Below are positions 3,608-32,904 of a stretch of 44,864 bases of DNA, piece by piece; within the stretch, counting starts at the first letter, position 1, and every line of letters begins with the position of its first letter. Under the pieces are notes generated by a model, which saw only the letters and a program-made list of their open reading frames with translations, was not told the origin of the DNA and made no database searches. The DNA is from Clostridia bacterium (GTDB lineage: Bacteria > Bacillota > Clostridia > Christensenellales > Aristaeellaceae). Position numbers and translations under genes: made by a program. The stretch is from assembly GCA_036834245.1 (NCBI GenBank), contig DAITOE010000001.1:1-44864 (forward strand), written 5' to 3'.

Positions 3608-3608
3608 C

Positions 3609-7544: not shown

Positions 7545-7554
7545 GGGGGCCGCC

Positions 7555-11477: not shown

Positions 11478-11586
11478 TTCCTTCACTCCTTCCCTGGCGG
11501 ACAGGCAGTCCGGCCGGTTGTGGCCTCAGGATGCCAGAAAAAGGGAGACCCTGCCTTAATCATGGCTTACAAAGGGCAGGGGCAAA

Positions 11587-11603
11587 CGAACAGTTTTGTC
11601 ACA
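11587..11603 (-). promoter_or_regulatory. Candidate BceR-type response-regulator box (minus strand TGTGACAAAACTGTTCG)
   Basis: It lies about 100 nt upstream of the bceA-like start. From memory it resembles the inverted-repeat sites described upstream of bceA-type genes (TNACA-N4-TGT..). Confidence 0.35.
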
Positions 11604-11614
11604 TAGGGCAGGCA

Positions 11615-13305: not shown

Positions 13306-13433
13306 CCTCGCGCCCTCCTTCTGCCAAAGTATAGCACGCTTTGGCGGGATTGTTGCCGCAGCGCCCCTGTTTTGGTGTATACTGGGGAAGGAATCAAGGC
13401 GCCTAAACAGGCGAAGAAACGGAGGACACATTT

Positions 13434-16689: not shown

Positions 16690-16718
16690 TTGACAAACAA
16701 CGGAAATCCATCTATACT
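16690..16718 (+). promoter_or_regulatory. Candidate promoter for the 16804 binding-protein gene (TTGACA-17 nt-TATACT)
   Basis: A consensus -35, an exact 17-nt spacer and a near-consensus -10, about 85 nt upstream of the AGGAGG RBS and ATG at 16804. Confidence 0.5.
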
Positions 16719-16803: not shown

Positions 16804-18237
16804 ATGAAGAAACTCGTAACCCTGCTTGTGGCTTTGTCGATGCTTTTGGGCATCATGGGCCTGGCAAGCGCCGAGGAAGCTGCCTACGACCTGGGCGGCA
16901 ACACCGTGAAGGTACGCCTGTGGGACAGCCCCAACCCCTACGCGGAAGACGTGTCCGAGGTGGACAAGGAAAAATGGCTGCCCATCTACGAGGGGCTCAA
17001 GGAAAAATACAACGTCAATTTTGAGTTCTACACCACCACCACCGAGTGGGGCGAGATGCCCAACGAATGGATCATGTCCGTGGCGTCCGGCACCCCCGCC
17101 TGGCACATCACCAACAACTTCTCCGTCATGTGGCTGCCCCAGATGGTGGCCAACAAGGCGGTGGCCGATGTGAAGGCAGGTGTGGACACCCTGGACATCC
17201 CCCAGGGCTTGAAGGAACTGGCGGTGTTCTCCGGCGTCACCGCCGGCTTCAACACCGGCTATCCCGGCACCGAGGTGCTCACCTTCAACCGCAAGATGAT
17301 CAAGGATGCGGGCATGGAGTATGACCCGGGCGAGATGTTCAAGATGGGCAAGTGGAGCTATGACGACTTCTATGCCTACATGACCGAATTGCAGAGCAAG
17401 CTGCCCGAAGACACCTATGCCTTCTTCATCGACCCCTACTACTGGGCCATCTTTGCACCTCCCGGCAACAACACCATGATGGTCAACACCGACTTCACCG
17501 TCAACATGGCCACCGACCCCTACATCGAGTCCTTTGAAGCCCTGAAGAAGCTCTTCGATGCCAAGGTGGTCCGTCCCGCCAACACCAACGACGCCGGCGA
17601 CCCCGACTACTGGGGCACCCCCGCCGCCACCTTTGACCAGGGCGTGGAAGTGGCCATGACCCACCGGGCCATGTGGCAGGTGGGCACCCTGAACTCGAAC
17701 CAGCTGGACTGGGGCATCGTGCCCTATCCCTGGGGCAGCAGCGTGAAGCTGGGCACCGAGGGCGACTACACCACCCTGTCTGAGGAATACCACACCGCCT
17801 ACTACGACATGGGCGTCATGGGCGTGATGCTGGAAGGCGTAGAGAAGGACTTCCCCGGCCTGGAGAAGGACTATGTCATCAAGGCCCTCACCAACCTGAC
17901 CTATGACCTGTTTGTGGACGACGAGGCCAAGGAGCGCCTGGCCAAGGAAGCGGCCGAGCCCGCCCAGGACGATGAGGAGATCGACATCGGCTCCTTCCAG
18001 GACGAGCTCTCTGCCGAGCTGTATGCCTGGATGAACAAGCGCGTCCTCTTCAACCCCCTGCCTGCCATCGGCGGCCTGAACCTGTGGGTGTCCTCCTCCT
18101 TTGACGAGGAGCGCCAGGTGGGCATGGGCGGCATCAACCGCATCATCTACGACAAGAACCTCCCCATCCGCGCCACCTTCGAGGCGGCCGCTGTGGAGCT
18201 GGAGACTGCCTTTAAGGATGCAGGCTTCCTGAAATAA
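16804..18237 (+). CDS. Extracellular solute-binding protein (carbohydrate ABC, family 1-like), monocistronic
   Basis: 477 aa with an AAAGGAGG RBS and signal peptide MKKLVTLLVALSMLLGIMGLASAEE. It has its own promoter and terminator. Confidence 0.7.
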   Translation: MKKLVTLLVALSMLLGIMGLASAEEAAYDLGGNTVKVRLWDSPNPYAEDVSEVDKEKWLPIYEGLKEKYNVNFEFYTTTTEWGEMPNEWIMSVASGTPAWHITNNFSVMWLPQMVANKAVADVKAGVDTLDIPQGLKELAVFSGVTAGFNTGYPGTEVLTFNRKMIKDAGMEYDPGEMFKMGKWSYDDFYAYMTELQSKLPEDTYAFFIDPYYWAIFAPPGNNTMMVNTDFTVNMATDPYIESFEALKKLFDAKVVRPANTNDAGDPDYWGTPAATFDQGVEVAMTHRAMWQVGTLNSNQLDWGIVPYPWGSSVKLGTEGDYTTLSEEYHTAYYDMGVMGVMLEGVEKDFPGLEKDYVIKALTNLTYDLFVDDEAKERLAKEAAEPAQDDEEIDIGSFQDELSAELYAWMNKRVLFNPLPAIGGLNLWVSSSFDEERQVGMGGINRIIYDKNLPIRATFEAAAVELETAFKDAGFLK

Positions 18238-18263
18238 TTCAACACACCAAACCAACAAGGGGG

Positions 18264-18285
18264 GGCTGCCGCTGCTGCGGCAGCC
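18264..18285 (+). terminator. Intrinsic terminator after the 16804 gene (GGCTGCCGC-tgct-GCGGCAGCC then TCCTTTTG)
   Basis: A perfect 9-bp GC-rich stem followed by a T-rich tract, 27 nt after the stop codon. Confidence 0.65.
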
Positions 18286-18503
18286 TCCTTTTGCTGTACC
18301 CGCCGGGTGTTTGACTGGCAAAAAAACGGGGATATACCAAGAATTGGAGGCTGCGGAAGCAGCTGTAACAGGGGCTGCAGGCGGGGGGCGCGGCCTTGCG
18401 CCACCGGGTCAAATCTGTTACAATTCAAACAATTCACAACGAAAACCCATGCTGTGTCTGGCGGACTCTGTCCGCTCCTTGACTGTATGATCTGGGGTAA
18501 CAC

Positions 18504-21389
18504 ATGAAGAGATTGCTGCTATTGTTCATAGCCCTGTGCCTGGTCTGCGGGTGTGTCACCGCGCTTGCCCAGAGCAAAACGGTGCCCCCCTACCGGGACA
18601 CCCTGTTCCGCTTTGCGGAACTGCCCCGCAACCAGCCGGAGGTCACCATCGCCGCCAGGGACTACCTGGATGCTGACATGGCGGACCTGAAAGTGCTGGC
18701 GGATGGCAGCCTGTTTACCGGGGATGCGGGCCAGGTGGATTTCCTGGTGGAGGTGCCGGAAACCGCCCTGTACACCATCCACGTCACCTACCAGCCGGTG
18801 CCCAGCATGGGGGGCGACATCCAGCGGGCCATCCTCATCAACGGAAGCCTGCCCTTCTCTGAGGCCGGGGAAATCGTCTTCTCCCGCCAGTGGGGGGACA
18901 TCAGCCAGGACTATAAGCAGGTGGCGGGCAACCAGCCCTTCCCCTCCCAGGTGGAAACCCCCGCCTTTGCCACCGTCCCCCTGAAGGACGCCATGGGCTA
19001 CGAGGTGGAGCCCCTGCTGTTCCGCTTTGAACAGGGCAGCAACATCCTGTCCTTCAAGTCCCTGCGCCAGGCCATGCTCATCCGCGACATCACTTTGGGC
19101 CAGGCCCGGCAGCTGCCGGACTACGACACCTACCTGCAGGGCCACCTGGAAGCAGGCGCCCGGGAATATGCCGGGGCGCCGGTGAAAATCCAGGCGGAGG
19201 ATGCCATTCTCAAATCCAGCCCCAGCTTCTACCCCGTCAACGACCGCACCTCCCCCCTGACGGAGCCCTACCACCCCAGCTACATCGTCCTCAACACCAT
19301 CGGCGGCACCGCCTGGAACGAGCCGGGGGAGTGGATCACCTGGGAGGTGGAAGTGCCGGAGGACGGCCTCTACCGCATTGTCACCCGCTTCAGCCAGTCG
19401 GAGATGCGGGGCCTGTACGCCGCCCGGCAGCTGTCCATCAACGGGGAGATTCCCTTCAAAGAGGCGGCGGACCTGCGCTTTTACCACGGCACGGGCTTTC
19501 AGCTGCAGCCCCTGGGGGCCCACCGGGCCGACCCCGCCCGGGCGGAGGACACCGCGGCCTATTGGTTTTATTTCACAAAGGGCACCCACCGGCTGACCCT
19601 GGAAATGTCCCTGGGGGAATTGGGCCAGGTGCTTAGGAAACTGGAGCAGGTCATCGGCCAGCTCAACAGCCTCTACCGCCAGATTGTGTCCATCACCGGC
19701 TCCGTGCCCGATGTCTACCGGGACTACCTGCTCTACACCCGGGTGCCCGGCCTGGCCCGGCAGACGGAGGAGCGCCTCATCGACCTGCGCGCCCTGAAGG
19801 ACGAGCTGCTGGCCCTCACCGGCCAGAGCAGCGAATACACCGCCGGCCTCACCCGCCTCATCGCCACCATGGAGGCCTTTGACAACGACAGCGAGGAGGT
19901 GGTGAAGCGGCTTTCCCCCATGAAGGAGTCCATCTCCGCCGTGGGCAAGGCCCTGCTGGACATGAAAAACCAGCCCCTGAAACTGGACTACCTCCTCCTG
20001 GCCGGGGAGGACCTGGGGGGCGCCCGGGCGGAAGGGAATGTCCTGGAGAAAGCCCTGCACACCGTCCTGTCCTTTGCCGGCTCCTTCAGCAATGATTATT
20101 CCGTGGCCGGGGCCCTCACCGAAGACACCAGCAAGGAGCTGGAGGTGTGGCTGTCCACCGGCCGGGACCAGTACGACGTCATCCGCCGGCTGGTGAACGA
20201 GTCCTATGAAAACCAGTACGGCACCAAGGTGAACATCAAATTGATCAGCCCGGATGTGATGCTGCCCAGCATCATGACCGGCCGGGGCCCGGACCTCACC
20301 ATCCAGATTGCCAACACCGCGCCGGTGAACTTCGCCTTCCGGGGCGCCGCCCTGGACCTGACGGAGTTCCCGGATTATGAGGAGGTGGCTGCCGCCTTCC
20401 TCCCCGCCGCCATGACCTCCTTCCTCTACCAGGACGGGGTCTATGCCCTGCCGGACCAGATGTCCTTCCCGGTGATGTACTACCGCAGCGACATCCTGGA
20501 TGCCCTGGGCCTTGACATCCCCGAAACCTGGGAGGACCTGGTGGCCCTGATCCCCCAGTTGCAGCGCAACAACATGGAGATCTACCTGGACACCGCCCCC
20601 CCGGCCAGCCTGGGCACCGCGGTGTCCATGGGCAGCGGCAAGCCGGTGAACACCATCTTCCTCTCCCGCCTGTTCCAGACCGGGGGGGAACTGTATCAGC
20701 CGGACGGCCGCGCCAGCGACCTGAACACCGCAGCAGCCTACGAGGCCTTCAAGTTCTGGACCCAGTTCTACACCCAGCACGGCTTCCCCCTGGAGATGGA
20801 CTTCGTCACCCGCTTCCGCATTGGCGAGGTGCCCCTGGGCATTGTGGATTTGTCCACCTACACCCGCCTGGCGGTGTCGGCACCGGAGATCAAGGGGGCC
20901 TGGAGCATCGCCCAGGTGCCCGGCACCCGGGATGAAGAAGGCCGCCTGGTCCGGGCGGTGCCCGCGGTGACCGGCGCCTGCATGATCGTCAAAAACAGCG
21001 TGGAAGCCCGGGACCGCAAGCAGGAGGCCTGGGACTTCCTCAAGTGGTGGACCAGCGCCCAGACCCAATTGCACTATGCCCGGGAGATGGAAACCGTCCT
21101 GGGCCAGGCCGGCCGCTACCTGGTGGCCAACCTGCAGGCCTTTGACACCGTGGCCTGGCCGCCCCAGGTGACCCCGGTTTTGAAAGCCACCCTGCCCACT
21201 TTGAGGGGCATCCCCCAGGTGCCCGGGGGCTATATCACCGGGCGCTACCTGGACAACGCCTTTGTCACCGTCATCACCAAGTATGAAAACACCTCTGACA
21301 CCCTGTATGACATGACCCGGCTGATTGACGAGGAAATTGCCGCCAAGCGGGCGGAGTTCCATCTGGATGAGGAAGGGGTGAAGAAATGA
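18504..21389 (+). CDS. Giant (961 aa) secreted protein: two tandem CBM-like beta-sandwich modules + helical linker + C-terminal ABC solute-binding domain
   Basis: The signal peptide is MKRLLLLFIALCLVCGCVTALAQS. There is an internal duplication (FLVEVPETALYTIHV..RAILINGSLPFSEAGEI versus WEVEVPEDGLYRIVT..RQLSINGEIPFKEAADL). The C-terminal about 420 aa look like SBP family 1 (KELEVWLSTGRDQYDVIRRLVNESYENQYGTKVNIKL). Confidence 0.75.
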   Translation: MKRLLLLFIALCLVCGCVTALAQSKTVPPYRDTLFRFAELPRNQPEVTIAARDYLDADMADLKVLADGSLFTGDAGQVDFLVEVPETALYTIHVTYQPVPSMGGDIQRAILINGSLPFSEAGEIVFSRQWGDISQDYKQVAGNQPFPSQVETPAFATVPLKDAMGYEVEPLLFRFEQGSNILSFKSLRQAMLIRDITLGQARQLPDYDTYLQGHLEAGAREYAGAPVKIQAEDAILKSSPSFYPVNDRTSPLTEPYHPSYIVLNTIGGTAWNEPGEWITWEVEVPEDGLYRIVTRFSQSEMRGLYAARQLSINGEIPFKEAADLRFYHGTGFQLQPLGAHRADPARAEDTAAYWFYFTKGTHRLTLEMSLGELGQVLRKLEQVIGQLNSLYRQIVSITGSVPDVYRDYLLYTRVPGLARQTEERLIDLRALKDELLALTGQSSEYTAGLTRLIATMEAFDNDSEEVVKRLSPMKESISAVGKALLDMKNQPLKLDYLLLAGEDLGGARAEGNVLEKALHTVLSFAGSFSNDYSVAGALTEDTSKELEVWLSTGRDQYDVIRRLVNESYENQYGTKVNIKLISPDVMLPSIMTGRGPDLTIQIANTAPVNFAFRGAALDLTEFPDYEEVAAAFLPAAMTSFLYQDGVYALPDQMSFPVMYYRSDILDALGLDIPETWEDLVALIPQLQRNNMEIYLDTAPPASLGTAVSMGSGKPVNTIFLSRLFQTGGELYQPDGRASDLNTAAAYEAFKFWTQFYTQHGFPLEMDFVTRFRIGEVPLGIVDLSTYTRLAVSAPEIKGAWSIAQVPGTRDEEGRLVRAVPAVTGACMIVKNSVEARDRKQEAWDFLKWWTSAQTQLHYAREMETVLGQAGRYLVANLQAFDTVAWPPQVTPVLKATLPTLRGIPQVPGGYITGRYLDNAFVTVITKYENTSDTLYDMTRLIDEEIAAKRAEFHLDEEGVKK

Positions 21390-22327
21390 GCCAGCGCGTC
21401 ATGAAGCGCCCGGCGCCCGCCGGCATCACCCGGTGGCAGTACCAGCGCCAGGTGATGAGAAAATCCCGCCAATTGTACCTGATGCTGACGCCCTACATGC
21501 TGTTTTTTGGACTGTTCACGGTGATCCCGGTGTTCATGTCCATCTATTACAGCTTCACCCGGTTTGACCTCCTGCAGCCGGCGCAGTTTGTGGGCTTCTC
21601 CAACTACATGCGCCTCTTCCTGGACGACCCCATCTTCCTAAAGGCCGTCCAGAACACCTTCATCCTGGCCATGATCATCGGCCCCTTCGGCTATATCTTC
21701 TCCTTCCTCATGGCCTGGCTCATCAACGAGCTGCCGGCCAAGTTAAGGGCGGTGTTGACGGTGATCTTCTACGCCCCCTCCATCTCCGGCAATGCCTATA
21801 TGATTTTCGCCATGCTCTTTTCCGGGGATGCCTACGGCTATATCAACGCCTACCTCCTCAACTGGGGCATCATCACCGGGCCCATCCTCTTCCTCAGGGA
21901 TGAGCGCTACATGATGCTCATCGTCATCCTGGTGTCCCTGTGGATGAGCCTGGGTGTGGGCTTCCTGTCCTTCATCGCAGGCCTTCAGGGGGTGGATAAG
22001 GCCCAGTACGAGGCGGCGGAGATTGACGGCATCAAAAACCGCTGGCAGGAATTGTGGTACATCACCCTGCCCAACATGCGGCCCCAGCTGCTCTTTGGCG
22101 CGGTGATGGCGGTGACGGGCTCCCTGTCGGTGGCGGATGTCACCGTGGCCCTAAACGGCTTCCCCTCCACCAACTACGCCACCCACACCATCATCAACCA
22201 CCTAAACGACTACGGGGTCATCCGCCTGGAGATGGGCTACGCCTGCGCCATTGCGGTGCTGCTGTTCTTCATCATGCTGGGGCTGAACCAGCTGATCCAG
22301 CGGCTGCTCAGAAAGGTGGGCACCTGA
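21386..22327 (+). CDS. Carbohydrate ABC transporter permease (MalF-like), pair 1
   Basis: 313 aa with an ATGA overlap with the upstream stop. It is multi-TM and its EAA loop is YEAAEIDGIKNRWQELWYITLPNMRP. Confidence 0.85.
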   Translation: MSQRVMKRPAPAGITRWQYQRQVMRKSRQLYLMLTPYMLFFGLFTVIPVFMSIYYSFTRFDLLQPAQFVGFSNYMRLFLDDPIFLKAVQNTFILAMIIGPFGYIFSFLMAWLINELPAKLRAVLTVIFYAPSISGNAYMIFAMLFSGDAYGYINAYLLNWGIITGPILFLRDERYMMLIVILVSLWMSLGVGFLSFIAGLQGVDKAQYEAAEIDGIKNRWQELWYITLPNMRPQLLFGAVMAVTGSLSVADVTVALNGFPSTNYATHTIINHLNDYGVIRLEMGYACAIAVLLFFIMLGLNQLIQRLLRKVGT

Positions 22328-23277
22328 TGGACAGAAAGCTGACCCGCAAGGAGCGCCAGTTCCAGAAAATGCTGGCGGCCACCCAGCAAAAACCTAAACG
22401 GCTGCCCAGAACGGCCCTGGGCCGCTTCCTCACCAGCCACAAGTCCAACCGCTCGGTGGGGGGCAGCCTCACCCTGCTGGCCTTCCTCTTCGCCTTTGCC
22501 CTGTTGAGCCTCTTCCCGGTGGTGTTCATGGTGTCAAACGCCTTCAAGCCCTTAAACGAGCTGTTCATCTTCCCGCCCAAGCTCTTTGTGATGCAGCCCA
22601 CCACCGCCAATTTTTCGGACCTCTTTGGCCTCTTGGCCAATTCCCTGGTGCCCTTCCTGCGGTATTTGTTCAACACCCTCTTCATCGTTGTGCTGGGCAG
22701 CGTGGGCCATGTGCTGCTGTCCTCCATGGCGGCCTTCCCCCTGGCCAAGTTCAACTTCCCCGGGGTGAAGCTCTTAAACCGCATGATCCTGCTGGCCCTG
22801 ATGTTTAGTACCGCTGTCACCGCGGTGCCCAACTTCATGATGCTCAGCTGGCTGCGGCTCATCGACACCTACTGGGCGGTGATCCTGCCCTCCCTGGCCC
22901 TGTCCGTGGGCCTCTTCCTGATGAAAAACTTCATGGAGCAGGTGCCCGACGCCCTGATTGACGCCGCCAGCATCGACGGCTGCAGCTATTTCACCATGCT
23001 GTGGAAGATTGTGATGCCGGCGGTGAAGCCCGCCTGGATCACCCTGTTCATCATCTCCTTCCAGGGCCTCTGGGGGGCCACCGGCGGCAGCTTCCTGTAC
23101 AAGGAAAACATCAAGCCCCTCTCCGCCATGCTGGGGCAGATTGCCGGCGGCGGCGTGGGCCGCACCGGTGTGGTGGCCGCCATCAGTCTGATGATGTTCA
23201 TGGTGCCCGTCACCATCTTCATCATCTCCCAGAGCAACGTGCTGGAAACCATGACCACTTCCGGCATCAAGGAATAA
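22327..23277 (+). CDS. Carbohydrate ABC transporter permease (MalG-like), pair 1, with about 50-aa basic N-terminal tail
   Basis: The start MDRKLTRKERQFQK at 22327 overlaps the upstream TGA (TGATG). The EAA loop is IDAASIDGCSYFTMLWKIVMPAVKP. The track ORF extension (22054-22326) is an overlap artefact. Confidence 0.85.
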   Translation: MDRKLTRKERQFQKMLAATQQKPKRLPRTALGRFLTSHKSNRSVGGSLTLLAFLFAFALLSLFPVVFMVSNAFKPLNELFIFPPKLFVMQPTTANFSDLFGLLANSLVPFLRYLFNTLFIVVLGSVGHVLLSSMAAFPLAKFNFPGVKLLNRMILLALMFSTAVTAVPNFMMLSWLRLIDTYWAVILPSLALSVGLFLMKNFMEQVPDALIDAASIDGCSYFTMLWKIVMPAVKPAWITLFIISFQGLWGATGGSFLYKENIKPLSAMLGQIAGGGVGRTGVVAAISLMMFMVPVTIFIISQSNVLETMTTSGIKE

Positions 23278-23289
23278 GGGGGTGACGGC

Positions 23290-24732
23290 ATGAAAAAAAG
23301 AACCTGGCTCCTCATGGTCTGCGCCCTGTTGCTGATAGCCAGCCTGCAGGCAACAGCTGAGCAGGGCAGCGCCAACTACCTGTATTCCCCCCACAAGGAG
23401 CTGCTGCCCGTGCCCCCGGCCTATGTGTGGGAGCGCTCCTTAACCGCCAGCCGCCTGCCCGGGGTGGACAACCTGGCCAATCTCAGTGACGCCACGGTGA
23501 AGGACGGCAGAATCTACGTCCTCTGCCAGGACAAGCTGCTGGTCTTTGACGAGGACTTTGGCCTCATCTCCCTGGTCCTGGCCTACCAGGAAGAGGGGGA
23601 GAGCCAGATGCTCGCCGGCTGCACCGGGCTGTTTGTGAACCCGGATGACAGCCTCTACATCACCCAGGCCGAGCAGGCCCGGATCTTGCACTTAAACCCG
23701 GACTTCACCCTGAAACGGGTGCTGGAGCGGCCCCGGATTGACGGCTTTGAAAACGTCAACTACCGCCCCACCAAGCTGGTGGCGGACGAGGCCGGCCGCC
23801 TGTACGTGGTGGCCAAGGGCATGTACGAGGGCATCGTGGAACTGCAGCAGGACGGCAGCTTCTCCCGCTTTTACGGGGTCAACGAGGTGCGCTTCAACGC
23901 GGCGGACCTGCTCTGGCGCCGCCTGGCCACCAAGGAGCAGCGGGCCCGGCAGCAGCTGTGGCTGCCCACGGACTTCACCAACGTGGCCATCGACAAGGAC
24001 GGCTTCATCTTCGCCACCATTATGGAATCCCGGGGCCAGCTGATCAAGCGCCTAAACGCCAAGGGGCAGAACATCCTGCGCACCGGCGCCCAGGTGGACT
24101 ACCCCGGCGGGGACATGCGGGTGAACCAGGCCGGCTACGGCATCCCCACCGGCCCCTCCCAGTTCATTGCGGTGGACGTCAACGACTACGGCGTCTTCAT
24201 CCTGCTGGACAGCACCAGAAGCCGCCTCTTCGCCTACAACGAGGACGGCAGGCTGCTGTACACCCTGGGGGGCCAGGGGGACAGGCGGGGCTATTTCCGC
24301 AGCCCTGTGGACGTGGACTTCCTGGGGGACCGCATCGTGGTGCTGGACCAATTGGCCCAGTCCATCGAGATTTTTGCCCCCACCGACTACGGCCGGGCCC
24401 TGAACCTGGCGGTGGCGCACCAGCACTTCAACCGCTTTGAAGAGGCGGCGGAGGCCTGGCGGGTAGCCCTCGGGTACAACCACAACCTCACCCTGGCCTA
24501 TTCCGGCATCGGCCGCTCCCTGCTGCGGGAGGGCAAATACGAGGAGGCCCTGAACTACCTCCAGCGGGGGGACGACCGGGAGTATTACTCCAAGGCCTAC
24601 GCCCAGGTGCGCAACGACTACCTGAAAACCCATTTTGACATCATCGTCCTGGGGCTCCTGGCGGTGATCATCCTGCCCCTGGTGGCAGTGAAGCTGCTGC
24701 GCCGCAGGTCGCGCAAGGAGGTGCAGGCATGA
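23290..24732 (+). CDS. Membrane-anchored extracytoplasmic protein: signal peptide, about 6-bladed NHL-like beta-propeller, TPR-like helical region, C-terminal TM anchor
   Basis: The signal peptide is MKKRTWLLMVCALLLIASLQATA. Six blade-like repeats are visible (DGRIYVLCQDKLLVFD, DSLYITQAEQARILHLN, AGRLYVVAKGMYEGIVEL, DGFIFATIMESRGQLIKRL, YGVFILLDSTRSRLFAYN, GDRIVVLDQLAQSIEIFA). Helical repeats include EEAAEAWRVALGYN and GKYEEALNYLQRG. The anchor is IIVLGLLAVIILPLVAVKLLRRRSRK. Confidence 0.6.
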   Translation: MKKRTWLLMVCALLLIASLQATAEQGSANYLYSPHKELLPVPPAYVWERSLTASRLPGVDNLANLSDATVKDGRIYVLCQDKLLVFDEDFGLISLVLAYQEEGESQMLAGCTGLFVNPDDSLYITQAEQARILHLNPDFTLKRVLERPRIDGFENVNYRPTKLVADEAGRLYVVAKGMYEGIVELQQDGSFSRFYGVNEVRFNAADLLWRRLATKEQRARQQLWLPTDFTNVAIDKDGFIFATIMESRGQLIKRLNAKGQNILRTGAQVDYPGGDMRVNQAGYGIPTGPSQFIAVDVNDYGVFILLDSTRSRLFAYNEDGRLLYTLGGQGDRRGYFRSPVDVDFLGDRIVVLDQLAQSIEIFAPTDYGRALNLAVAHQHFNRFEEAAEAWRVALGYNHNLTLAYSGIGRSLLREGKYEEALNYLQRGDDREYYSKAYAQVRNDYLKTHFDIIVLGLLAVIILPLVAVKLLRRRSRKEVQA

Positions 24733-25382
24733 CCAGTTTTGCAAAAAGCGGGACCCGTTTTGTGGACACCTTCTGGCGCTTCCCCTTCAGCATCCTGGGC
24801 AGGCCCTTCAAGGGCTTTGACGAGATGAAATGGGGGGGCAAGGGCCGGTACAGCTTTGCCATCTTCGTCCTGGTCTTTGCCTGCCTGCTGTCGGTGGCCG
24901 AGTTTGTCTACACGGGCTTTCTCATCAACACCGGCAACCCCTACCTGTTCAACTCCCTCTTCCTGGCCCTGGGCACCGCCTTCCCGGTGATGCTGTTTGT
25001 CACCGCCAACTGGTCCATCACCACCCTGCTGGACGGCAAGGGCCGCTACGGCGAAATCTTCCAGGCCACCATGTACGCCATGTTCCCCATGACCATCCTG
25101 CGCCTGCTGGCCCTGATTTTAAGCCGGGTGCTGACCCTGGAGGAAATGACGGTGGTCACCACCCTGCGCACCCTGGGTGGGGTCATCTTCTTCCTCTACC
25201 TCTTCATCGCCCTGGTGGTGGTGCACGAGTACACCTTCGGCAAGGCCCTGGGCAGCCTGCTGCTCACCGTGGCCAGCATGATGGTGATCACTTTCGTATT
25301 GATGCTGTTCTTCGCCCTGGTGGCGGATGTGGCGGATTTCTTCCGCATCATCACCAAGGAAATCATCTTCAAGTATTTTTAG
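24729..25382 (+). CDS. Yip1-family integral membrane protein (about 5 TM)
   Basis: 217 aa with an ATGA overlap with the upstream gene. It has five hydrophobic segments. The FDEMKWGGKG...SFAIFVLVFACLL and ANWSITTLLDGKGRYGEIFQATMYAMFP pattern is typical of bacterial Yip1-domain proteins. The family call is from memory. Confidence 0.6.
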   Translation: MTSFAKSGTRFVDTFWRFPFSILGRPFKGFDEMKWGGKGRYSFAIFVLVFACLLSVAEFVYTGFLINTGNPYLFNSLFLALGTAFPVMLFVTANWSITTLLDGKGRYGEIFQATMYAMFPMTILRLLALILSRVLTLEEMTVVTTLRTLGGVIFFLYLFIALVVVHEYTFGKALGSLLLTVASMMVITFVLMLFFALVADVADFFRIITKEIIFKYF

Positions 25383-25396
25383 AAAGGGGTGTCCGC

Positions 25397-27859
25397 ATGA
25401 AAAAAATCTTCTGTCTCCTGTTGCTTGTGGCACTCCTGATGCCGGGCCTGCCCCCCGCCGGGGCCAGCGGCCTGGCCCCTGAGGGCTTCACCCTGATGGC
25501 GGAAAACGAGGCGCTGGCCCTGTACCTGCGGGAAAAGGACATGCTTTTGCAGGTGACCCACAAGGCCACCGGACGGTTCATCCAGTCCAGCCTCATGGGC
25601 GGCCAGCAGGGCAACCAGGTGGTGAAGAACCTGCAAAAATCCATGTTCAACGTCACCTTCATCGTCAACGCCAAAAGCGGCACCGTCTCCGCCATGGACA
25701 GCCATTCCATGGGGGTGATGATGGGGGGCGTCACGGCAGAGCAGACGGCAGGCGGCCTGCGCCTCCATTTCACCGTGGGGGACACCAAGCTGACGGAGGA
25801 CGACCTGCCCAAGATGATCCCCCTGGAGAAATACAACGCGCTGCTCAAGCCCCATTTCAGCGAGAAAAACGACAAAACCTTCCGGGGCACCTATGTCCTG
25901 GTGGGGGGCAACCAGTGGATCCGGTCCAAGGATCAGGGCATGGGGGCCCTGGCCATCAAGCAGCTGTATGCCCTGCTGTTTGAAACCGGCCAGTACACCC
26001 AGGAGGACCTGATTGAAGACAACCTGGCCTTCGGCCACGAGCGCGCCGTCTTCAACCCCCGCTTGTCCCTGGCCCTGGATTTCCGCCTGGACGGGGATGA
26101 CCTGCTGGTCTCCCTGCCCCTTGACAGCGTGGAAACCACCCCGGACAACCACCTGACCGTGGTGGAAATCCTGCCCTATTTCCTCTCCGCCACCCGGGAG
26201 GACAGCGGCTATTTCCTGGTGCCCGACGGCCCCGGGGGGCTGATTCCCTTCAACTCCGGCAACACCACGGCCCTGTCCTATCTGGACCAGGTCTACGGGC
26301 CGGACCCATTGAAGAACATCAACCGCTACCAGAGCCCCCGGTCCCGGATTCAACTGCCGGTCCTGGGCATGAAGAAAAACGGCCTCTCCGCCCTGGCCAT
26401 CATCGAGGAAGGGGCCGAGATGGCAGAATTGTTCGCCGACATCTCCGGCCGGGCGGACGAGTTCAACCGGGCCAGCATCCGCTTTGTGCTGCGGGACATC
26501 GAGGCGGTCTCCCTGCTGGGCAACCAGTCCATCACCGTGCCCCGCTTCAGCGACGACGTGTACACCGGCAGCTTCCGGGTGCGTTACAAGCTCTTCTTTG
26601 AAGAGGATTTCGGCTATGTGGAGATGGCCAGGGCCTATCAGGACTACCTGATCAAGCGGGGGATGCTGACATCATCCGCCCCCCTGGAGACGGCCCCCGT
26701 CTTCATCGAAACCCTGGGTGCCTTTTCCAAACAGAAGTTCTTCCTGGGCATCCCCTACCGCTCCACCGTCACCGCGGGCAGCCTGCCCCAGATCAAAAGC
26801 ATCTACGAGGCCTTGAAAGCAAAGGGCCTGGGCAGGATCCACCTGTCGGTCTACGGCCTGCTGGAAGGGGGCATGAAGCATTATTCCCTCAGCAGCCTGA
26901 AGCTGGACCCCAACATGGGGGGGCTTGCGGAATGGAACCGGCTGCGGGACGCGGTGACCGCCGGGGGGGACGAGATCCTGCCCAGCGTCTACATGAACAC
27001 CGTCTACGGGCGCAAGCGCTTCAACTACTACCAGGACGCTGCCAGGCTCCACAACGGGGACGCGGCCAGCGTCATGGTGATGCAGGAAAGCACCATGCTG
27101 CCGGCCCTGATGCCCTACCAGAGCTATTACCTCTCCCCCCACAGCCTGAAGGACTATGTGGAAAAGGCGGCCCAGTCCCTGTCGGGCCTGTCGCCCTCGG
27201 CCCTCCATGTCAGGGACCTGGGCTTCAGCCTGGTGCCGGACTATGCCAGGCGCAAGAACATCTCCAGGGTGCATGCCAGGCCCGGCTACCAGGAAGCCCT
27301 CAAGGAGCTGGCGGCCAGTTTTCCCCTGGCCCTCAGCCGCCCCAATGACTATGCCTTCCCGCATGCCACCTACGCCATGAACCTGCCCACCTCGGGCAAC
27401 GGCTTCAAGGTGGTGGAGACGGCGGTGCCCTTCCTGCCCCTGGTGCTGGAGGGTTGCCTGCCAGGGGCGGTGAGCCCCATGAACCTGGCCGCCCACCAGA
27501 ACCCCGGGGTGCTGCTGCTTCACGCCATGGAGGCCCGGCTCTTCCCGGCCTTCACCTTAAGCCATGCCCCGGAAACCGTCTTCCACGACACCCAGGACAA
27601 GGAGTTCATGAGCTTTTTCACCACCCAGTATGAGGGCCAGCTGGACCGGATTGCCGACATCAGCCAGCAGTATGAGGCCTTCTACCAGCAGGTGAAAGGC
27701 GCCCGCACCCTCTCCCACGAGGTGGTGAACCAGCAGGTGCGCCGCATCCGCTACGACAACGGGATGACCCTGCTCATCAACTACGGCAGCGCACCCTATC
27801 TGAGCCCTGAAGGCACCGTGGAAGGCGGTTTCTACCTTCTGACAGGAGGCCAGCAATGA
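25397..27859 (+). CDS. Secreted 820-aa protein of unknown function, DUF5696-like (possible cryptic glycan-active enzyme)
   Basis: The internal ATG at 25397 (MKKIFCLLLLVALLMPGLPPAGASG signal peptide) lies 14 nt after the Yip1 stop. The motif LPYFLSATREDSGYFLVPDGPGGLIPFNSG resembles what I recall for DUF5696 proteins, which I could not verify. The track ORF extension (24830-25396) overlaps the Yip1 gene out of frame. Confidence 0.55.
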   Translation: MKKIFCLLLLVALLMPGLPPAGASGLAPEGFTLMAENEALALYLREKDMLLQVTHKATGRFIQSSLMGGQQGNQVVKNLQKSMFNVTFIVNAKSGTVSAMDSHSMGVMMGGVTAEQTAGGLRLHFTVGDTKLTEDDLPKMIPLEKYNALLKPHFSEKNDKTFRGTYVLVGGNQWIRSKDQGMGALAIKQLYALLFETGQYTQEDLIEDNLAFGHERAVFNPRLSLALDFRLDGDDLLVSLPLDSVETTPDNHLTVVEILPYFLSATREDSGYFLVPDGPGGLIPFNSGNTTALSYLDQVYGPDPLKNINRYQSPRSRIQLPVLGMKKNGLSALAIIEEGAEMAELFADISGRADEFNRASIRFVLRDIEAVSLLGNQSITVPRFSDDVYTGSFRVRYKLFFEEDFGYVEMARAYQDYLIKRGMLTSSAPLETAPVFIETLGAFSKQKFFLGIPYRSTVTAGSLPQIKSIYEALKAKGLGRIHLSVYGLLEGGMKHYSLSSLKLDPNMGGLAEWNRLRDAVTAGGDEILPSVYMNTVYGRKRFNYYQDAARLHNGDAASVMVMQESTMLPALMPYQSYYLSPHSLKDYVEKAAQSLSGLSPSALHVRDLGFSLVPDYARRKNISRVHARPGYQEALKELAASFPLALSRPNDYAFPHATYAMNLPTSGNGFKVVETAVPFLPLVLEGCLPGAVSPMNLAAHQNPGVLLLHAMEARLFPAFTLSHAPETVFHDTQDKEFMSFFTTQYEGQLDRIADISQQYEAFYQQVKGARTLSHEVVNQQVRRIRYDNGMTLLINYGSAPYLSPEGTVEGGFYLLTGGQQ

Positions 27860-28773
27860 CTGCCCTGCGCAAACAAAACCCAAAAACCGGCTCCTGGTAC
27901 TACCGGCTGCCCTTCCCCAAGAAGATGGGGCTGTGGGGGATCATCTTCCTGATTCCCTGGCTCATCGGCTTCTTCGTCTTTTTCCTCTACCCCATGGTCC
28001 AGGTGGTACGCTACAGCTTCCACGACATGTCCATCATCCCGGAGTTGGAGCTCACCTTCACCGGCCTGGCCAACTACAACCAGGCCCTGCGGGTGGACCC
28101 CAACTACCTGCGGGCCATGGTGAACACCCTGGGGGAGGTGCTGCTGATGACCCCCCTGGTGGTGATCTTCTCCCTCTTGTGCGCCATTCTGCTCAACGGA
28201 AAGTTCCGGGGCCGGGCCATCGCCCGGGCGGTCTTCTTCATCCCCATCATCATGGCCACAGGCCTGATGCTGGACCGGGTCACCAACCTCTCTGCCCAGC
28301 TGGTCACCGCCGGCGCCCAGACCGCACCCTCCTTTGGCGCGGGCACCATTGCCGAGCTGCTGTTTTCCATCGGCATCGGCCGGGAGGCAGTCAGCTACCT
28401 CCTGCGCTCCGTCAACGACATCTTCAAGGTGGTGTCCCTCTCGGGCATCCAGATCTTGATCTTCCTCTCCGCCCTCCAGTCCATCAGCCCCTCCCTGTAT
28501 GAGGTGGCGAAGATTGAGGGGGCCACCGGCTATGAAACCTTCTGGAAGGTGACGGTGGTGATGGTGTCCCCCATGGTGCTCACCGTCAGCGTCTACACCC
28601 TGGCCGACCTCTTCCTGCGCTCCCCGGTGATCGAACTCACCTACGCGGTTGCCTTCAGGCGCTCCCAGTTCGGCCTGTCCGCCGCCATGAGCGTGCTGTA
28701 CCTGTTGATGTGCATCCTGGTGATCGGCATCGTCAGCTGGCTGATTAAAAAGGTGGTGTTCTATTATGACTGA
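27856..28773 (+). CDS. Carbohydrate ABC transporter permease (MalF-like), pair 2
   Basis: 305 aa with an ATGA overlap with the upstream stop. The EAA-like loop is YEVAKIEGATGYETFWKVTVVMVSP. Confidence 0.8.
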   Translation: MTALRKQNPKTGSWYYRLPFPKKMGLWGIIFLIPWLIGFFVFFLYPMVQVVRYSFHDMSIIPELELTFTGLANYNQALRVDPNYLRAMVNTLGEVLLMTPLVVIFSLLCAILLNGKFRGRAIARAVFFIPIIMATGLMLDRVTNLSAQLVTAGAQTAPSFGAGTIAELLFSIGIGREAVSYLLRSVNDIFKVVSLSGIQILIFLSALQSISPSLYEVAKIEGATGYETFWKVTVVMVSPMVLTVSVYTLADLFLRSPVIELTYAVAFRRSQFGLSAAMSVLYLLMCILVIGIVSWLIKKVVFYYD

Positions 28774-29788
28774 CAAGGCCCTGCGCCTGACACGGAGCGC
28801 CCGGGACAAGCGGCACTTCAACAAGCCCCTGCTGCAAAAGAAGGCCAAGGGCCTGCTGGTGAGCGTGCTGCGCTTCGCCCTGATTGTGTGCCTCAGCTAC
28901 CTGATCCTGGCCCCCATTTTGCGGAACCTCACCCAGGCCTTCACCCACCCGGACGACCTGGGCATGGCCACCAGCATCTGGCTGCCCCAGCGCATCTCCA
29001 CCCAGAACTGGCATGTGTCCCTATTAATGCTGGACTACTGGAAGGCCCTGCCCTACACCTTTTTGCACACCAGCATCATGGTGCTGCTGCAAACCCTGTG
29101 CGCCATGCTGGCGGGCTATTCCTTCGCCCGGTTCAAGTTCCGCTTCCGGGGGCTGCTGTTCGCCTTTGTGGTGTTCACCATCATCGTGCCGCCCCAGGTG
29201 TTCATGATGCCCCAGTACCTCTTCTTCCGGAAGTTTGACATCTTCGGCATCATCACCCTGATTACCGGCAAGCCCCTGAACCTGCTCAACAGCAGCATGT
29301 CCCTGTATGTGATGAGCGCAGTGGGCATGGGGATCAAAAGCGGGCTGTACATCTACATCTTCCGACAGACCTTCAGGAGCCTGCCCCGGGAATTGGAGGA
29401 GGCCGCCTACATCGACGGCGCCGGCTTCCTGCGCACCTTCACCTCCATTGTGGTGCCGGCAGCCAAGGCGGGCATCCTGACGGTGGTGGTGTTGAGCTTT
29501 GTGTGGAACTGGAACGACTCCTACTACACCAACCTCTTTGACAACAACAACGTGCGCCACCTGATGCTGGCCTACGGCAAGGCGGTGGCCTCGGTGGACG
29601 AGGCCCTGGCCAGCATCTCCAGCAAAGTGCCGGCAGGCTACTCCTTCCTCACCAAGAACCCGGTCTATGAGGGCGCCATCGCCAAGACGGCCAGCATGCT
29701 GGTCTTCCTGCCCCTGGTCTTCCTCTACCTCTTTGTCCAGCGCCGCTTCGTCCAGGGGGTGGAGCGCTCCGGCATCGCAGGGGACTGA
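28766..29788 (+). CDS. Carbohydrate ABC transporter permease (MalG-like), pair 2, with basic N-terminal tail
   Basis: 340 aa with an 8-nt overlap with the upstream gene. The EAA loop is EEAAYIDGAGFLRTFTSIVVPAAKA. Confidence 0.8.
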   Translation: MTDKALRLTRSARDKRHFNKPLLQKKAKGLLVSVLRFALIVCLSYLILAPILRNLTQAFTHPDDLGMATSIWLPQRISTQNWHVSLLMLDYWKALPYTFLHTSIMVLLQTLCAMLAGYSFARFKFRFRGLLFAFVVFTIIVPPQVFMMPQYLFFRKFDIFGIITLITGKPLNLLNSSMSLYVMSAVGMGIKSGLYIYIFRQTFRSLPRELEEAAYIDGAGFLRTFTSIVVPAAKAGILTVVVLSFVWNWNDSYYTNLFDNNNVRHLMLAYGKAVASVDEALASISSKVPAGYSFLTKNPVYEGAIAKTASMLVFLPLVFLYLFVQRRFVQGVERSGIAGD

Positions 29789-29795
29789 TTCATTT

Positions 29796-29839
29796 ATCCT
29801 GAACGCAAGCGTCAGTTTGTTGATGCTTGCGTTCAGGAT
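29796..29839 (+). terminator. Strong intrinsic terminator closing the 18504-29788 operon (15-bp stem ATCCTGAACGCAAGC / GCTTGCGTTCAGGAT, then TGCTATTTTCT)
   Basis: A perfect 15-bp inverted repeat with a 14-nt loop and a T-rich tail, beginning 8 nt after the stop codon. Confidence 0.75.
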
Positions 29840-29882: not shown

Positions 29883-30698
29883 ATGGCTCTCATCAGCCTC
29901 AACTACCCTTCCGCCGCCCTGTATCAGAACACCGAGGTCACGGTGATCCTGCCGGACCCGGGGGAGGGGCTGCTGCGCCCGGGCAAAGGGGAACAGAGTC
30001 AGCCCCGCTACCCGGTGCTCTACCTGCTGCACGGCACCCACGGCGACCACACGGACTGGTGCCGTTACACCGCGATTGAGCGCTATGCCAGGGAGCGGGG
30101 GCTGGCGGTGGTGATGCCCGCCTGCGGCAACTCCTTCTACCAGGACATGGCCTCCGGCCCCCGGTACAAAAGCTTTGTGCTGGATGAATTGCCTGCCTAT
30201 TTGAGCGCCATCCTGCCCCTGTCCCGGAAACGGGAGGAAGTCTTCATCGCCGGCCTGTCCATGGGGGGCTACGGGGCCTTGCACCTGGCCCTGAGCCGGC
30301 CCCGGCAGTTCGCGGCGGCGGCCTCCCTCTCCGGCATTTTTTCCTTCGCGAAGCCCTACCGGGAGGTGAAGGACCAGCCGGATTTGCCCTGGCCCTTCCT
30401 GGCCATCCTGGGGGAAGGGGTCAACCCAACGGCCCTCCAGCGCAGCAACCGCAACGTGCTGGTGCAGGTGAAGCGCCTGATGGACCGGAAGGAGCCCCTG
30501 CCCCAGCTGTTCATCTCCGTGGGCACGGAGGACTTTACCCTGCCCTACAACCGGGAGGCCTGGCAGAAACTGCACGCCCTGGGGGCAGACTTCACCTATG
30601 AGGAGCACCCCGGTGCCCACACCTGGGATTACTGGGACACCCACATTCAGCGGGTGCTGGACTGGTTGCCGCTTCCAGAAAAAGAAGGTACGGAGTAG
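29883..30698 (+). CDS. Esterase-family alpha/beta hydrolase (putative-esterase / tributyrin-esterase-like, CE1-like)
   Basis: 271 aa with an AGGAGG RBS. It has YPVLYLLHGTHGDHTDW and the nucleophile elbow GLSMGGYGAL. Confidence 0.8.
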   Translation: MALISLNYPSAALYQNTEVTVILPDPGEGLLRPGKGEQSQPRYPVLYLLHGTHGDHTDWCRYTAIERYARERGLAVVMPACGNSFYQDMASGPRYKSFVLDELPAYLSAILPLSRKREEVFIAGLSMGGYGALHLALSRPRQFAAAASLSGIFSFAKPYREVKDQPDLPWPFLAILGEGVNPTALQRSNRNVLVQVKRLMDRKEPLPQLFISVGTEDFTLPYNREAWQKLHALGADFTYEEHPGAHTWDYWDTHIQRVLDWLPLPEKEGTE

Positions 30699-30873: not shown

Positions 30874-31560
30874 CTACGCCTTCAAGCCTTCCTTGTCATC
30901 CAGCACCTGCCAGACCAGGGCAGCCAGGGCGCCGCCCACCAGGGGGGCGAGGATGAAGACCCAGACGATGTTCAGGGCATCGGGCTGGCCGATGAGGGAG
31001 AGGATGAGGGCGGGGCCGAAGCTGCGGGCGGGGTTGACGCTGGTGCCGGTGAAATAGATGCCCAGGATGTGCACCAGGGTGAGGGTGAGGCCGATGACCA
31101 GGCCGGCTTTTCTGGCGGAGGCCTCCCGGGAGGTGACCCCCAGGATGGTGAGGACGAAGACGAAGGTGAGGATGACCTCGACGAGGAGGGATTTCATGAG
31201 GTCCCCCTGGTAGAGGGCGTTCTGGCCCAGGCCCATCCCGCCGCCGATGATGAGGTAGAGGATGCCGGCCCCGGCGATGGCGCCCAGGAACTGGGCGATG
31301 AGGTAGCCGATGAAGTCCCGGCCTGTCATGCGCCCGGTGAGGAGCATGCCGGTGGAGACGGCGGGGTTGATGTGGCAGCCGGAGATGTGGCCGATGGAGT
31401 AGGCCATGGCGACGATGACCAAGCCAAAGGCGAAGGCGGTCATCAGGTAGCTGACGGTGGCGGCGCCTTCCACCATCTTGGCGCCGGTGACGGCGGCGGT
31501 GCCGCAGGCGAAGAGCACCAGCACCAGGGTGCCGATGAATTCCGAGGCATATTTCTTCAT
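30874..31560 (-). CDS. aqpZ: MIP-family channel, aquaporin Z-like
   Basis: The start MKKYASEFIGTLVLV at 31560 follows AAGGAGG. It has two NPA boxes (HINPAVS, SVNPARS). The track ORF upstream extension is not coding. Confidence 0.85.
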   Translation of the reverse strand: MKKYASEFIGTLVLVLFACGTAAVTGAKMVEGAATVSYLMTAFAFGLVIVAMAYSIGHISGCHINPAVSTGMLLTGRMTGRDFIGYLIAQFLGAIAGAGILYLIIGGGMGLGQNALYQGDLMKSLLVEVILTFVFVLTILGVTSREASARKAGLVIGLTLTLVHILGIYFTGTSVNPARSFGPALILSLIGQPDALNIVWVFILAPLVGGALAALVWQVLDDKEGLKA

Positions 31561-31682
31561 TCCGGGTTCCTCCTTATCGGGGTTTGGTATACCAGGTATG
31601 GGTGTCGCCCATATCATACCACCGCCGCCATGGTTTCCACCAGCCGGATTGACGGGATTTGCCTGTTTCATCGCCAATTTTC

Positions 31683-31711
31683 TTGAATAAAGGCCCTTTT
31701 GGTGGTATACT
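31683..31711 (+). promoter_or_regulatory. Candidate promoter for the BMP-type ABC operon (TTGAAT-17 nt-TATACT)
   Basis: Hexamers with an exact 17-nt spacer. It is followed by a small 5' UTR hairpin (AGAAAC-tgt-GTTTCT) and the AGGAGG RBS. Confidence 0.45.
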
Positions 31712-31763
31712 ACCTGTACTTAGAAACTGTGTTTCTACAGCGAATAATAAGGAGGAACCATTC

Positions 31764-32837: not shown

Positions 32838-32845
32838 CATCCCCC

Positions 32846-32873
32846 AACCGGCTGCCCCACCGGGCAGCCGGTT
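32846..32873 (+). terminator. Intra-operon hairpin/attenuating terminator after the binding-protein gene (AACCGGCTGCCC-cacc-GGGCAGCCGGTT + TTTTCT)
   Basis: A perfect 12-bp stem plus a T run, 9 nt after the stop. This is the usual arrangement for giving excess binding-protein mRNA. Confidence 0.65.
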
Positions 32874-32904
32874 TTTTCTACATAAATATAGGTTAGGGAA
32901 TGCA

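Follow-up and report, generated by a model that had tools for sequence, protein, structure and literature searches.

A conserved nine-gene cassette, very probably a glycan-uptake core, that combines two ABC importers with a propeller, Yip1 and DUF5696 trio

The window analysed here, a stretch of 44,864 nucleotides from a Clostridia bacterium of the Aristaeellaceae (GenBank assembly GCA_036834245.1, contig DAITOE010000001.1, positions 1 to 44,864 of the forward strand), carries at 16804-29788 (+) a cassette of nine genes that very probably constitutes a conserved core for glycan uptake. The cassette encodes two complete receptor and permease sets of CUT1-type (MalEFG-like) ATP-binding cassette (ABC) importers, with one binding protein each, and a trio of further envelope proteins comprising an anchored NHL-propeller/TPR protein, a Yip1-family membrane protein and a secreted DUF5696 protein whose fold resembles that of glycoside hydrolase (GH) families GH129 and GH101. 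In the model favoured here, which is held with moderate confidence, the nine genes specify a machine for the capture, processing and import of glycans at the cell surface. A preliminary description of the same DNA, made from the sequence and a list of its open reading frames (ORFs), had proposed an envelope system for glycan capture and import, and the domains, topology and synteny presented below agree with that proposal.

Results

Conservation and partition of the cassette

A set of 85 related loci was gathered and the window proteins were mapped onto them by jackhmmer, with counts made on 84 non-redundant loci. The eight genes at 18504-29788 occur in identical order in 68 of the 84, across Bacilli, Clostridia and Spirochaetes, and most of the other loci are interrupted by contig ends. 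The ninth gene, encoding a small binding protein, is adjacent in 67 of the 68 ordered loci, lying directly upstream in 61 (as in the window) and directly downstream in six, mostly from Lachnospiraceae; the sole ordered locus lacking it is accounted for by a contig end. The preliminary description had noted two permease sets against a single binding protein in the operon and had treated the gene at 16804 as a second, separate one. The adjacency of this gene removes the puzzle, as there are two co-conserved binding proteins for two permease pairs, and its product is indeed a second binding protein, although it belongs to the conserved module rather than standing apart. The gene order is retained in Paenibacillus at only 20-27% identity of the DUF5696 protein, and in Treponema.

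The module is found in Paenibacillus, Cohnella, Thermobacillus, Amphibacillus, Gracilibacillus and Lederbergia as well as in Lachnospiraceae, Christensenellales, Defluviitaleaceae, many Clostridia metagenome-assembled genomes (MAGs) and Treponema, so that the earlier designation as a Gram-positive machine is too narrow. One further contig carries a protein cluster labelled Acholeplasmataceae by a source. The nearest representatives among the matches listed are uncultured Clostridia/Eubacteriales MAGs with 43-46% DUF5696 identity. At least 559 DUF5696 loci are present in species-representative genomes, and a profile search of 1.84 billion representatives returned 3,937 DUF5696 clusters at 50% identity (E <= 1e-30). 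The trio of propeller, Yip1 and DUF5696 proteins, whose co-conservation with the permeases the preliminary description had named as one test of its proposal, is strictly co-conserved with them in the related loci. Chance adjacency of two unrelated importers and three envelope genes has nothing in its favour beyond the abundance of sugar ABC operons in such genomes, and its probability is negligible: it is already refuted by the synteny, and the start/stop overlaps within the unit and fusions of the propeller and Yip1 proteins in 18 loci also count against it.

Reduced and rearranged loci indicate that the module splits into two sub-modules, A (the giant binding protein with the first permease pair, P1F and P1G) and B (the small binding protein with the trio and the second permease pair, P2F and P2G). 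Four loci (L045, L051, L076 and L079) have the order small binding protein, propeller/Yip1, DUF5696, P2F, P2G, and in L079 the set of giant binding protein, P1F and P1G has moved downstream of the B set; L067, L070 and L084 resemble the same reduced form. The smallest association seen is in Treponema (L006, 9977-14429), where only DUF5696, P2F and P2G stand among flagellar, gyrase-like and peptidase genes, with both binding proteins, the propeller and Yip1 absent. In the reduced-form loci L045, L051, L070, L076, L079 and L084 the DUF5696 protein is approximately 100 residues longer (917-964 aa) and aligns with the query in two separate segments, a sign that this subfamily may carry an inserted domain.

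The two sub-modules also differ in how fast their components diverge. The small binding protein and the DUF5696 protein are the most divergent components throughout and P1F/P1G the most conserved, and between copies in mannan and xylan contexts the small binding protein is 35% identical and DUF5696 40%, compared with 71-74% for P1F/P1G. This fast divergence fits a model in which specificity probably resides in sub-module B.

The two importers

The giant binding protein of sub-module A (18504-21389, +; 961 aa) was characterized with Pfam, AlphaFold2 (AF2), Foldseek and a family profile. It comprises a signal peptide, two beta-sandwiches (approximately residues 47-199 and 227-368), a helical bundle (371-488) and a MalE-like domain (492-951), with the SBP_bac_1/8 matches of Pfam confined to residues 559-860. 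In the AF2 model (predicted local distance difference test score, pLDDT, 85.7) the binding domain has MalE-like Foldseek matches with TM 0.7-0.8 and is nearest to binders of beta-1,2-gluco-, malto- and manno-oligosaccharides. Foldseek results for the whole protein are dominated by this domain; the assignment of the N-terminal part as resembling carbohydrate-binding modules (CBMs) rests on profile and Pfam evidence. The family profile of the N-terminus matches CBM35 of CITase (cycloisomaltooligosaccharide glucanotransferase) at E 6.6e-6 and CBM35 of CsxA at 0.03, along with designed coiled coils, and in homologous N-termini Pfam detects Golvesin_C in 16 of 31 and CBM_35 in 8 of 31; residues 1-558 of the window protein are themselves without a Pfam match. 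The label "CBM-like" is thus a reasonable one, with membership in CBM35 not established, and the AF2 model, the profile and the Pfam matches of homologues all agree with the two CBM-like modules and helical linker first described ahead of the binding domain.

The giant protein is followed by the MalF/UgpA-like permease P1F (21386-22327, +; BPD_transp_1 E 1.7e-12, EAA motif at residue 209) and the MalG/UgpE-like permease P1G (22327-23277, +; BPD_transp_1 E 4e-11, UgpE/MalG NCBIfam match, EAA-like motif at 212). The second pair consists of the divergent MalF-like permease P2F (27856-28773, +), which scores 25.9 bits against the BPD_transp_1 cut-off of 26.4 and matches UgpA at E 3e-10 with an EAA-like motif at 216, and the MalG-like permease P2G (28766-29788, +; BPD_transp_1 E 4.7e-14, EAA motif at 212). 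An EAA-type coupling motif is therefore present in all four permeases. Both MalG-like subunits have the long basic N-tails reported earlier, with 12 lysine or arginine residues among the first 40 in P1G and 11 in P2G. The P1 and P2 pairs share only 24-28% identity and hence do not stem from a recent duplication, and in the jackhmmer mapping the P2F gene follows the DUF5696 gene in nearly all loci.

The small binding protein (16804-18237, +; 477 aa) is secreted and AbnE-like, as judged from its family profile, synteny and signal peptide. As a single sequence it has no Pfam match, and its family profile matches the arabino-oligosaccharide-binding protein AbnE (PDB 6rjy) at E 8.5e-43, far above other sugar binders. 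It is the probable receptor of the second permease pair, and by these matches both it and the giant protein rank as class I/cluster B-type extracytoplasmic receptors of the CUT1 kind. The window copy has a signal peptide of the Ala-X-Ala type (16804-16880) and lacks the lipobox cysteine, unlike the family consensus with its lipoprotein box L-x-A-C-S. By hydropathy, cleavable signal peptides are present on both binding proteins, the propeller protein and the DUF5696 protein.

The unit at 18504-29788 contains no ATPase, regulator or classified GH according to Pfam and NCBIfam scans, as had been proposed for it. The ATPase is inferred to be supplied in trans, by analogy with the known use of MsmX in Bacillota. 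No MalK/MsmX-type ATPase is encoded in the window, where the only ABC ATPases are of the Bce/FtsX and Bmp/PnrA types, and in Paenibacillus eucommiae a MalK-type ATPase gene lies directly upstream of the module; both observations agree with the shared ATPase of the preliminary description. Two ATPases of the window were considered as partners and rejected, one at 32905-34431 as part of a Bmp/PnrA-type transporter and one at 10698-11486 as part of an FtsX/Bce-type system. The former belongs to a region (30874-36520) in which a MIP-family channel gene (-) precedes those for a Bmp/PnrA-type binding protein and a double ABC ATPase and two ORFs that probably encode permeases; the set resembles a nucleoside-type importer.

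The propeller and Yip1 proteins

The first member of the trio (23290-24732, +; 480 aa) has a signal peptide, a predicted six-blade-type NHL propeller, TPRs and a C-terminal anchor, as assigned from its family profile and hydropathy. The protein alone gives weak NHL (18 bits) and weak TPR matches in Pfam; the profile of 33 family sequences matches NHL propellers in the PDB at E 1e-44 to 1e-20, and TPRs in addition. Pizza, PknD, TRIM71, TRIM2 and Brat are among its matches (E 1e-44 to 1e-12), which extend over 3-6 stretches. Hydrophobic segments lie at residues 5-23 and 451-469, the latter followed by RRRSRK. The second member (24729-25382, +; 217 aa) is a Yip1-family membrane protein with five hydrophobic segments, taken as five helices, and its Pfam score of 36.8 bits (gathering cut-off 28.6) covers model positions 3-172 of 173. 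The domain assignments first suggested for the cassette, namely SBP_bac, BPD_transp_1, NHL/TPR, Yip1 and DUF5696, are all borne out by the Pfam and NCBIfam scans, that of NHL/TPR with the help of the family profile.

In the 18 loci with fusions, the propeller/TPR and Yip1 parts form a single polypeptide, and source gene calls confirm this with proteins of 696 and 672 aa. The fusions indicate that the two proteins must act together, and the anchor helix of the split propeller protein is the first helix of the fused form. A Yip1-family protein, YknW, is known to influence how the ABC transporter YknXYZ assembles (PMC4887032). The scaffold or gate roles suggested for the propeller and Yip1 proteins have some support from this precedent as well as from the fusions, and they could apply here by analogy.

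The DUF5696 protein

The third member of the trio (25397-27859, +) is a secreted protein of 820 aa with a three-domain fold like that of GH129 and GH101, as found by Pfam, AF2, Foldseek and hhalign. It matches Pfam DUF5696 (PF18952) at E 1e-138 with 463.8 bits against a cut-off of 25.6, over model positions 2-609 of 612. The AF2 model, built from 34 sequences (pLDDT 90.3, predicted template modelling score 0.87), has N-terminal beta-rich domains including a beta-sandwich, a (beta/alpha)8 barrel and a C-terminal beta-sandwich. Its best Foldseek match in the PDB is DagB, a GH129-like 3,6-anhydro-D-galactosidase (5opq; E 4e-28, TM 0.72 on target), and the top pair of 5opq and 5wzr (E 4e-28 to 1e-22) is followed by GH101, GH36 and GH31. 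A GH-like (beta/alpha)8 core, which the preliminary description had proposed to look for with these two programs, is thus present in the model and is closest to GH129.

Profile comparisons point in the same direction. The DUF5696 family profile matches NagBb at E 3.7e-10, and hhalign aligns residues 320-803 with the C- and N-terminal halves of GH129 at 96.8% and 97% probability; halves were used in place of a full-length GH129 alignment as the homologue search gave only fragments of at most 311 aa. These GH129-like (NagBb-like) database fragments (P0307-P0326) carry precomputed matches to both Glyco_hydro_101 (PF12905) and DUF5696 (PF18952), which means that the Pfam DUF5696 model already overlaps the GH101/GH129 superfamily. 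A sub-profile of residues 560-770 run against PDB sequences for a catalytic alignment returned noise only (phycocyanin, E ~0.1) and was set aside. From profile and model comparison, DUF5696 appears to be a sister family of GH129/GH101 in which activity, while unproven, is plausible.

The residues at the expected active site leave the question of catalysis finely balanced, and an active enzyme is given slightly less than an even chance. The equivalent of the NagBb nucleophile D435 (D486 in ZgGH129) falls in a four-residue alignment gap beside D607 of the window protein, which lies two residues past the strand 603-605 at the end of barrel strand 4, where the nucleophile is expected. Several features count against catalysis. 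D607 is kept in only 70 of 85 family members (82%), being replaced by T, V, Q, N, E, S or H in approximately 15; the NagBb acid/base E478 aligns in hhalign to S647, a variable position with a conserved N650-x-Y652 close by; and the strictly invariant D277, E337, N696, E712 and H774 are without GH129 counterparts. In addition, a single DUF5696 family stands beside enzyme sets for beta-xylan, beta-mannan and chitin or N-glycans, which is odd for a relative of linkage-specific alpha-glycosidases. The cryptic glycanase of the preliminary description is therefore upheld as to its GH-like core and left in doubt by the missing GH129 acid/base and the incomplete conservation of D607.

In an alternative reading, DUF5696 would be a non-catalytic, glycan-binding or structural relative of GH129 and the trio an assembly, gating or docking factor for P2, with no cleavage at the membrane. 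The loss of the acid/base and the replacement of the aspartate at the nucleophile position favour this alternative, as do the service of one family to loci with chemically different substrates and the precedent of a Yip1-family protein in ABC transporter assembly (YknW with YknXYZ; PMC4887032). It is nevertheless rather unlikely, since D277 (in a PDGxG motif), D303, E337, N696, E712 and H774 are 97-100% invariant in members down to approximately 20% identity, a pattern typical of an active site, and since DUF5696 diverges fastest along with the small binding protein, as would a part in contact with the substrate. Furthermore, ZgGH129 (DagB) also lacks the acid/base of NagBb and is still an active enzyme (PMC5698469).

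Flanking genes and the choice of substrate

Flanking ORFs of the related loci were clustered and scanned with Pfam. Among 98 downstream co-directional ORFs, GH10 is found in 22 and GH43 in 11, along with GH18, GH26, GH38, GH29 and GH95. Of the 24 loci with a lipoprotein GH10 xylanase, 18 encode it immediately downstream; GH43 occurs in at least 17 loci and GH18 in seven, the last without a signal peptide and nearest to ChiW and a GH18 N-acetylglucosaminidase. Other neighbours include GH2, BNR and beta-helix proteins, PNGase F-like genes beside the module in Treponema, and a divergent AraC-type response regulator in 38 loci. In Paenibacillus prosopidis, one of two full copies (L024, L043) is followed by GH26, CBM35-GH26 and GH2 (mannan) and the other by GH10 and GH43 (xylan); P. 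harenae likewise has two copies of the module (L039, L064). Since the flanking enzymes vary with lineage between xylan, mannan, chitin and N-glycan sets, even within one genome, the core is substrate-adaptable and, on the evidence of these neighbourhoods, appears as a platform reused for different glycans.

In the window itself, just two accessory genes accompany the module. The unit is followed by a PF00756 esterase gene (29883-30698, +; Pfam Esterase E 4e-22) whose product has neither a hydrophobic N-terminus nor a signal peptide and is predicted to be cytoplasmic. It is probably an accessory enzyme for imported esterified oligosaccharides, and homologues adjoin the module in five loci by phmmer and nine by jackhmmer. 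Divergent from the module lies a gene for a 779-aa protein (14095-16434, -) whose one recognisable domain is a type I dockerin at the C-terminus; it may be a cellulosome-borne enzyme or binding protein serving the module. This gene occupies a stretch of lower GC content (0.56 vs 0.62), and the same arrangement is found in a near-identical metagenome contig (L087).

Further upstream, the + strand of the window at 2555-8427 carries a beta-lactamase-like gene, the anhydro-N-acetylmuramic acid kinase gene AnmK, a gene for a sugar-binding protein of 517 aa and two ORFs for probable permeases, a cluster that looks like one for recycling and import of peptidoglycan fragments. The following Bce-type block on the - strand (8605-13431; FtsX permease, ABC ATPase, histidine kinase and OmpR-type response regulator) is probably an unrelated unit for sensing and efflux of peptide antibiotics, placed between the wall-recycling genes and the module.

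These surroundings bear on a further alternative, that the module recycles fragments of peptidoglycan, teichoic acid or capsule from the envelope of the cell itself rather than importing external polysaccharides. AnmK, the beta-lactamase-like gene and this third sugar ABC system lie 10 kb upstream; one related locus (L086) is flanked by Amidase_2, GHL10, NamZ and a homologue of the window's beta-lactamase-like gene, another (L001) has GH18 and LysM neighbours, and both GH129 and GH101 act on glycans containing N-acetylhexosamine. Across the loci, however, the neighbours are mostly enzymes for plant polysaccharides (GH10, GH43, GH26, GH2 and CE1-type esterases), several genomes have two or more copies with different sets of carbohydrate-active enzymes (CAZymes), and the giant binding protein has CBM35-like modules of a kind typical of plant or fungal glycan binding. 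In the window, moreover, the Bce-type ABC and two-component block parts the wall genes from the module. Recycling of the cell's own wall is accordingly judged quite improbable, and uptake of external glycans is preferred.

Transcription signals

The eight + strand ORFs at 18504-29788 were all recovered at the coordinates first given for them, and direct reading of the sequence reproduced the tight packing, overlaps, small gaps and terminator of the preliminary description. Start/stop overlaps of the ATGA type occur at 21386, 24729 and 27856, a TGATG junction at 22325-22329 and an 8-nt overlap at 28766-28773; the remaining gaps are of 12 nt (23278-23289) and 14 nt (25383-25396), and a purine-rich, GGAGG/AGGGG-like ribosome-binding site precedes each of the eight starts. 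The unit ends in an intrinsic terminator (29796-29839, +) with a stem of 15 perfect pairs, or 20 including two G-U pairs, and a folding energy of -33.2 kcal/mol (z = -9.0 vs shuffles).

Upstream of the small binding-protein gene there is a promoter-like site, TTGACA-17-TATACT (16690-16718, +), which matches the consensus at 11 of 12 positions and is called on that match only. Downstream of the gene, RNAfold and direct reading identify a G+C-rich hairpin of 12 bp (18261-18288) followed by TTTT (18261-18292, +; -34.9 kcal/mol, z = -5.7). This element lies between the two binding-protein genes and may terminate or attenuate transcription there. A leader of 211 nt without an Rfam match separates it from the giant binding-protein gene, and an Rfam scan of the whole window found no riboswitch or leader RNA. 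In the 266-nt gap 5' of 18504 no promoter-like site passed the consensus scan; a weak one, TTGACT-16-TATACC at 18311-18338 (+), was spotted by eye only. The small binding-protein gene may thus have a transcript of its own that yields a surplus of the protein, with the hairpin as an attenuator setting that surplus, and the eight-gene unit may be expressed by readthrough or from the weak promoter. With such a strong hairpin after 16804-18237, the single transcription unit of 11.3 kb proposed earlier is safe for 18504-29788, and it does not extend with the same security to the module as a whole.

Discussion

Taken together, the observed composition, topology, folds, gene order, fusions and variable neighbours of the cassette can be joined into one sequence of events. 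In sub-module A, the CBM35-like modules on their helical stalk would hold a polymer or long oligosaccharide at the cell surface, where secreted enzymes encoded beside the core (GH10/GH43, GH26/GH2, GH18 or PNGase F-like, depending on lineage) would cut it; in the window the divergent dockerin protein may be the equivalent. The giant binding protein would take up the fragments and deliver them to P1. In sub-module B, the propeller and Yip1 proteins would tether DUF5696 beside P2, DUF5696 would bind or trim the glycan, and the small binding protein would hand the product to P2. A shared MsmX/MalK-type ATPase from elsewhere in the genome would drive both importers, and cytoplasmic enzymes, here the esterase, would finish the degradation.

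Four further points weigh against this model. The high conservation of P1F/P1G (70-75% identity) between mannan and xylan copies is unexpected for a substrate-specific channel. The strong hairpin suggests at least some transcription of the small binding-protein gene independent of the other eight. In the window, no classified GH or evident regulator lies adjacent, and the substrate is not indicated. Finally, contact of the trio with the permeases, a physical complex and catalysis by DUF5696 are points that we infer, as are the way in which the two importers share the work and the substrate used by this organism.

Glycan foraging by Bacillota is currently attributed to a binding protein that works with two permeases and various enzymes, a scheme that lacks a conserved core of the SusC/D kind. 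A fixed nine-gene core in at least 559 loci, three of whose proteins are without an assigned role, changes this picture. Should the trio prove to form a complex of enzyme and transporter, extracellular processing would be coupled to ABC import in a new manner. A function would then be assigned to a large DUF, which would probably become the founder of a new glycoside hydrolase family, and glycan loci in Gram-positive bacteria of gut, rumen and soil would gain a genomic marker. Culturable Paenibacillus species carry the module, which makes the question directly testable.

Comparison with known systems

Among enzymes, the closest parallels are GH129 (NagBb, an alpha-N-acetylgalactosaminidase of Bifidobacterium bifidum, and DagB of Zobellia galactanivorans) and GH101, which share the three-domain architecture of DUF5696. 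Identity between GH129 and DUF5696 is approximately 12-16%, the acid/base glutamate of NagBb is absent and DUF5696 has an invariant residue set of its own. Unlike GH129, DUF5696 is always encoded in an ABC importer operon beside a dedicated permease pair.

The Yip1 component has its parallel, through a shared Pfam family, in YknWXYZ of Bacillus subtilis, where a Yip1-family protein is encoded with an ABC transporter and needed for its assembly (PMC4887032). YknYZ is a MacB-type exporter with a membrane-fusion protein and is without a propeller or GH-like partner, unlike the importer module described here.

As to larger assemblies, SusC/D of Bacteroidota have no homology to the module, and resemble it by analogy. 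A far-reaching version of the favoured model, considered unlikely, would make the cassette the monoderm counterpart of SusC/D, a universal and substrate-adaptable surface core in which a GH129-derived protein with a new active site sits on a propeller-Yip1 scaffold at P2; cleavage or handling of beta-1,4-linked chains would then be coupled to their import in a supercomplex, with the giant binding protein and its importer as the capture arm. To our knowledge, Gram-positive polysaccharide-utilisation loci (gpPULs) have no defined conserved core beyond "a transporter", and the module differs in having a fixed core of nine genes. The gpPULs (Sheridan et al. 2016; PMC5320581), as by analogy the SusC/D loci, share with the module a conserved transport core amid variable CAZymes and regulators and the occurrence of multiple copies per genome. 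Set against the gpPUL criteria of transport, enzymes and regulation (PMC5320581), the window has transport, with only the GH129-like protein and the PF00756 esterase as enzyme candidates; without an adjacent regulator and a classified GH this copy probably falls short of the formal minimum. Many related loci comprise all three, with AraC-type response regulators plus GH10/GH43.

In the literature searched, no mention of DUF5696 or PF18952 was found, nothing relevant on Yip1 with a solute-binding protein or with ABC/Paenibacillus, and no match of the cluster to a characterised locus; Yip1, NHL and CBM-fused binding proteins are all unmentioned in a 2026 review of bacterial glycoside transporters. 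The transporters themselves are of a well-known kind, and the module has in common with CUT1 importers (MalEFGK2; AbnEFJ of Geobacillus stearothermophilus; MsmX-dependent systems of Bacillota) a MalE-like binder, MalF/MalG permeases with EAA loops and, presumably, an ATPase encoded elsewhere. It differs from them in the interleaving of two importer sets in one operon, in the three non-transporter envelope proteins placed between the permease pairs and in the N-terminal extension of one binding protein, whose approximately 490 residues comprise two CBM35-like modules and a helical bundle. The novelty lies in the arrangement, with two importers encoded together, a binding protein that bears CBM-like modules and a trio in constant association with them.

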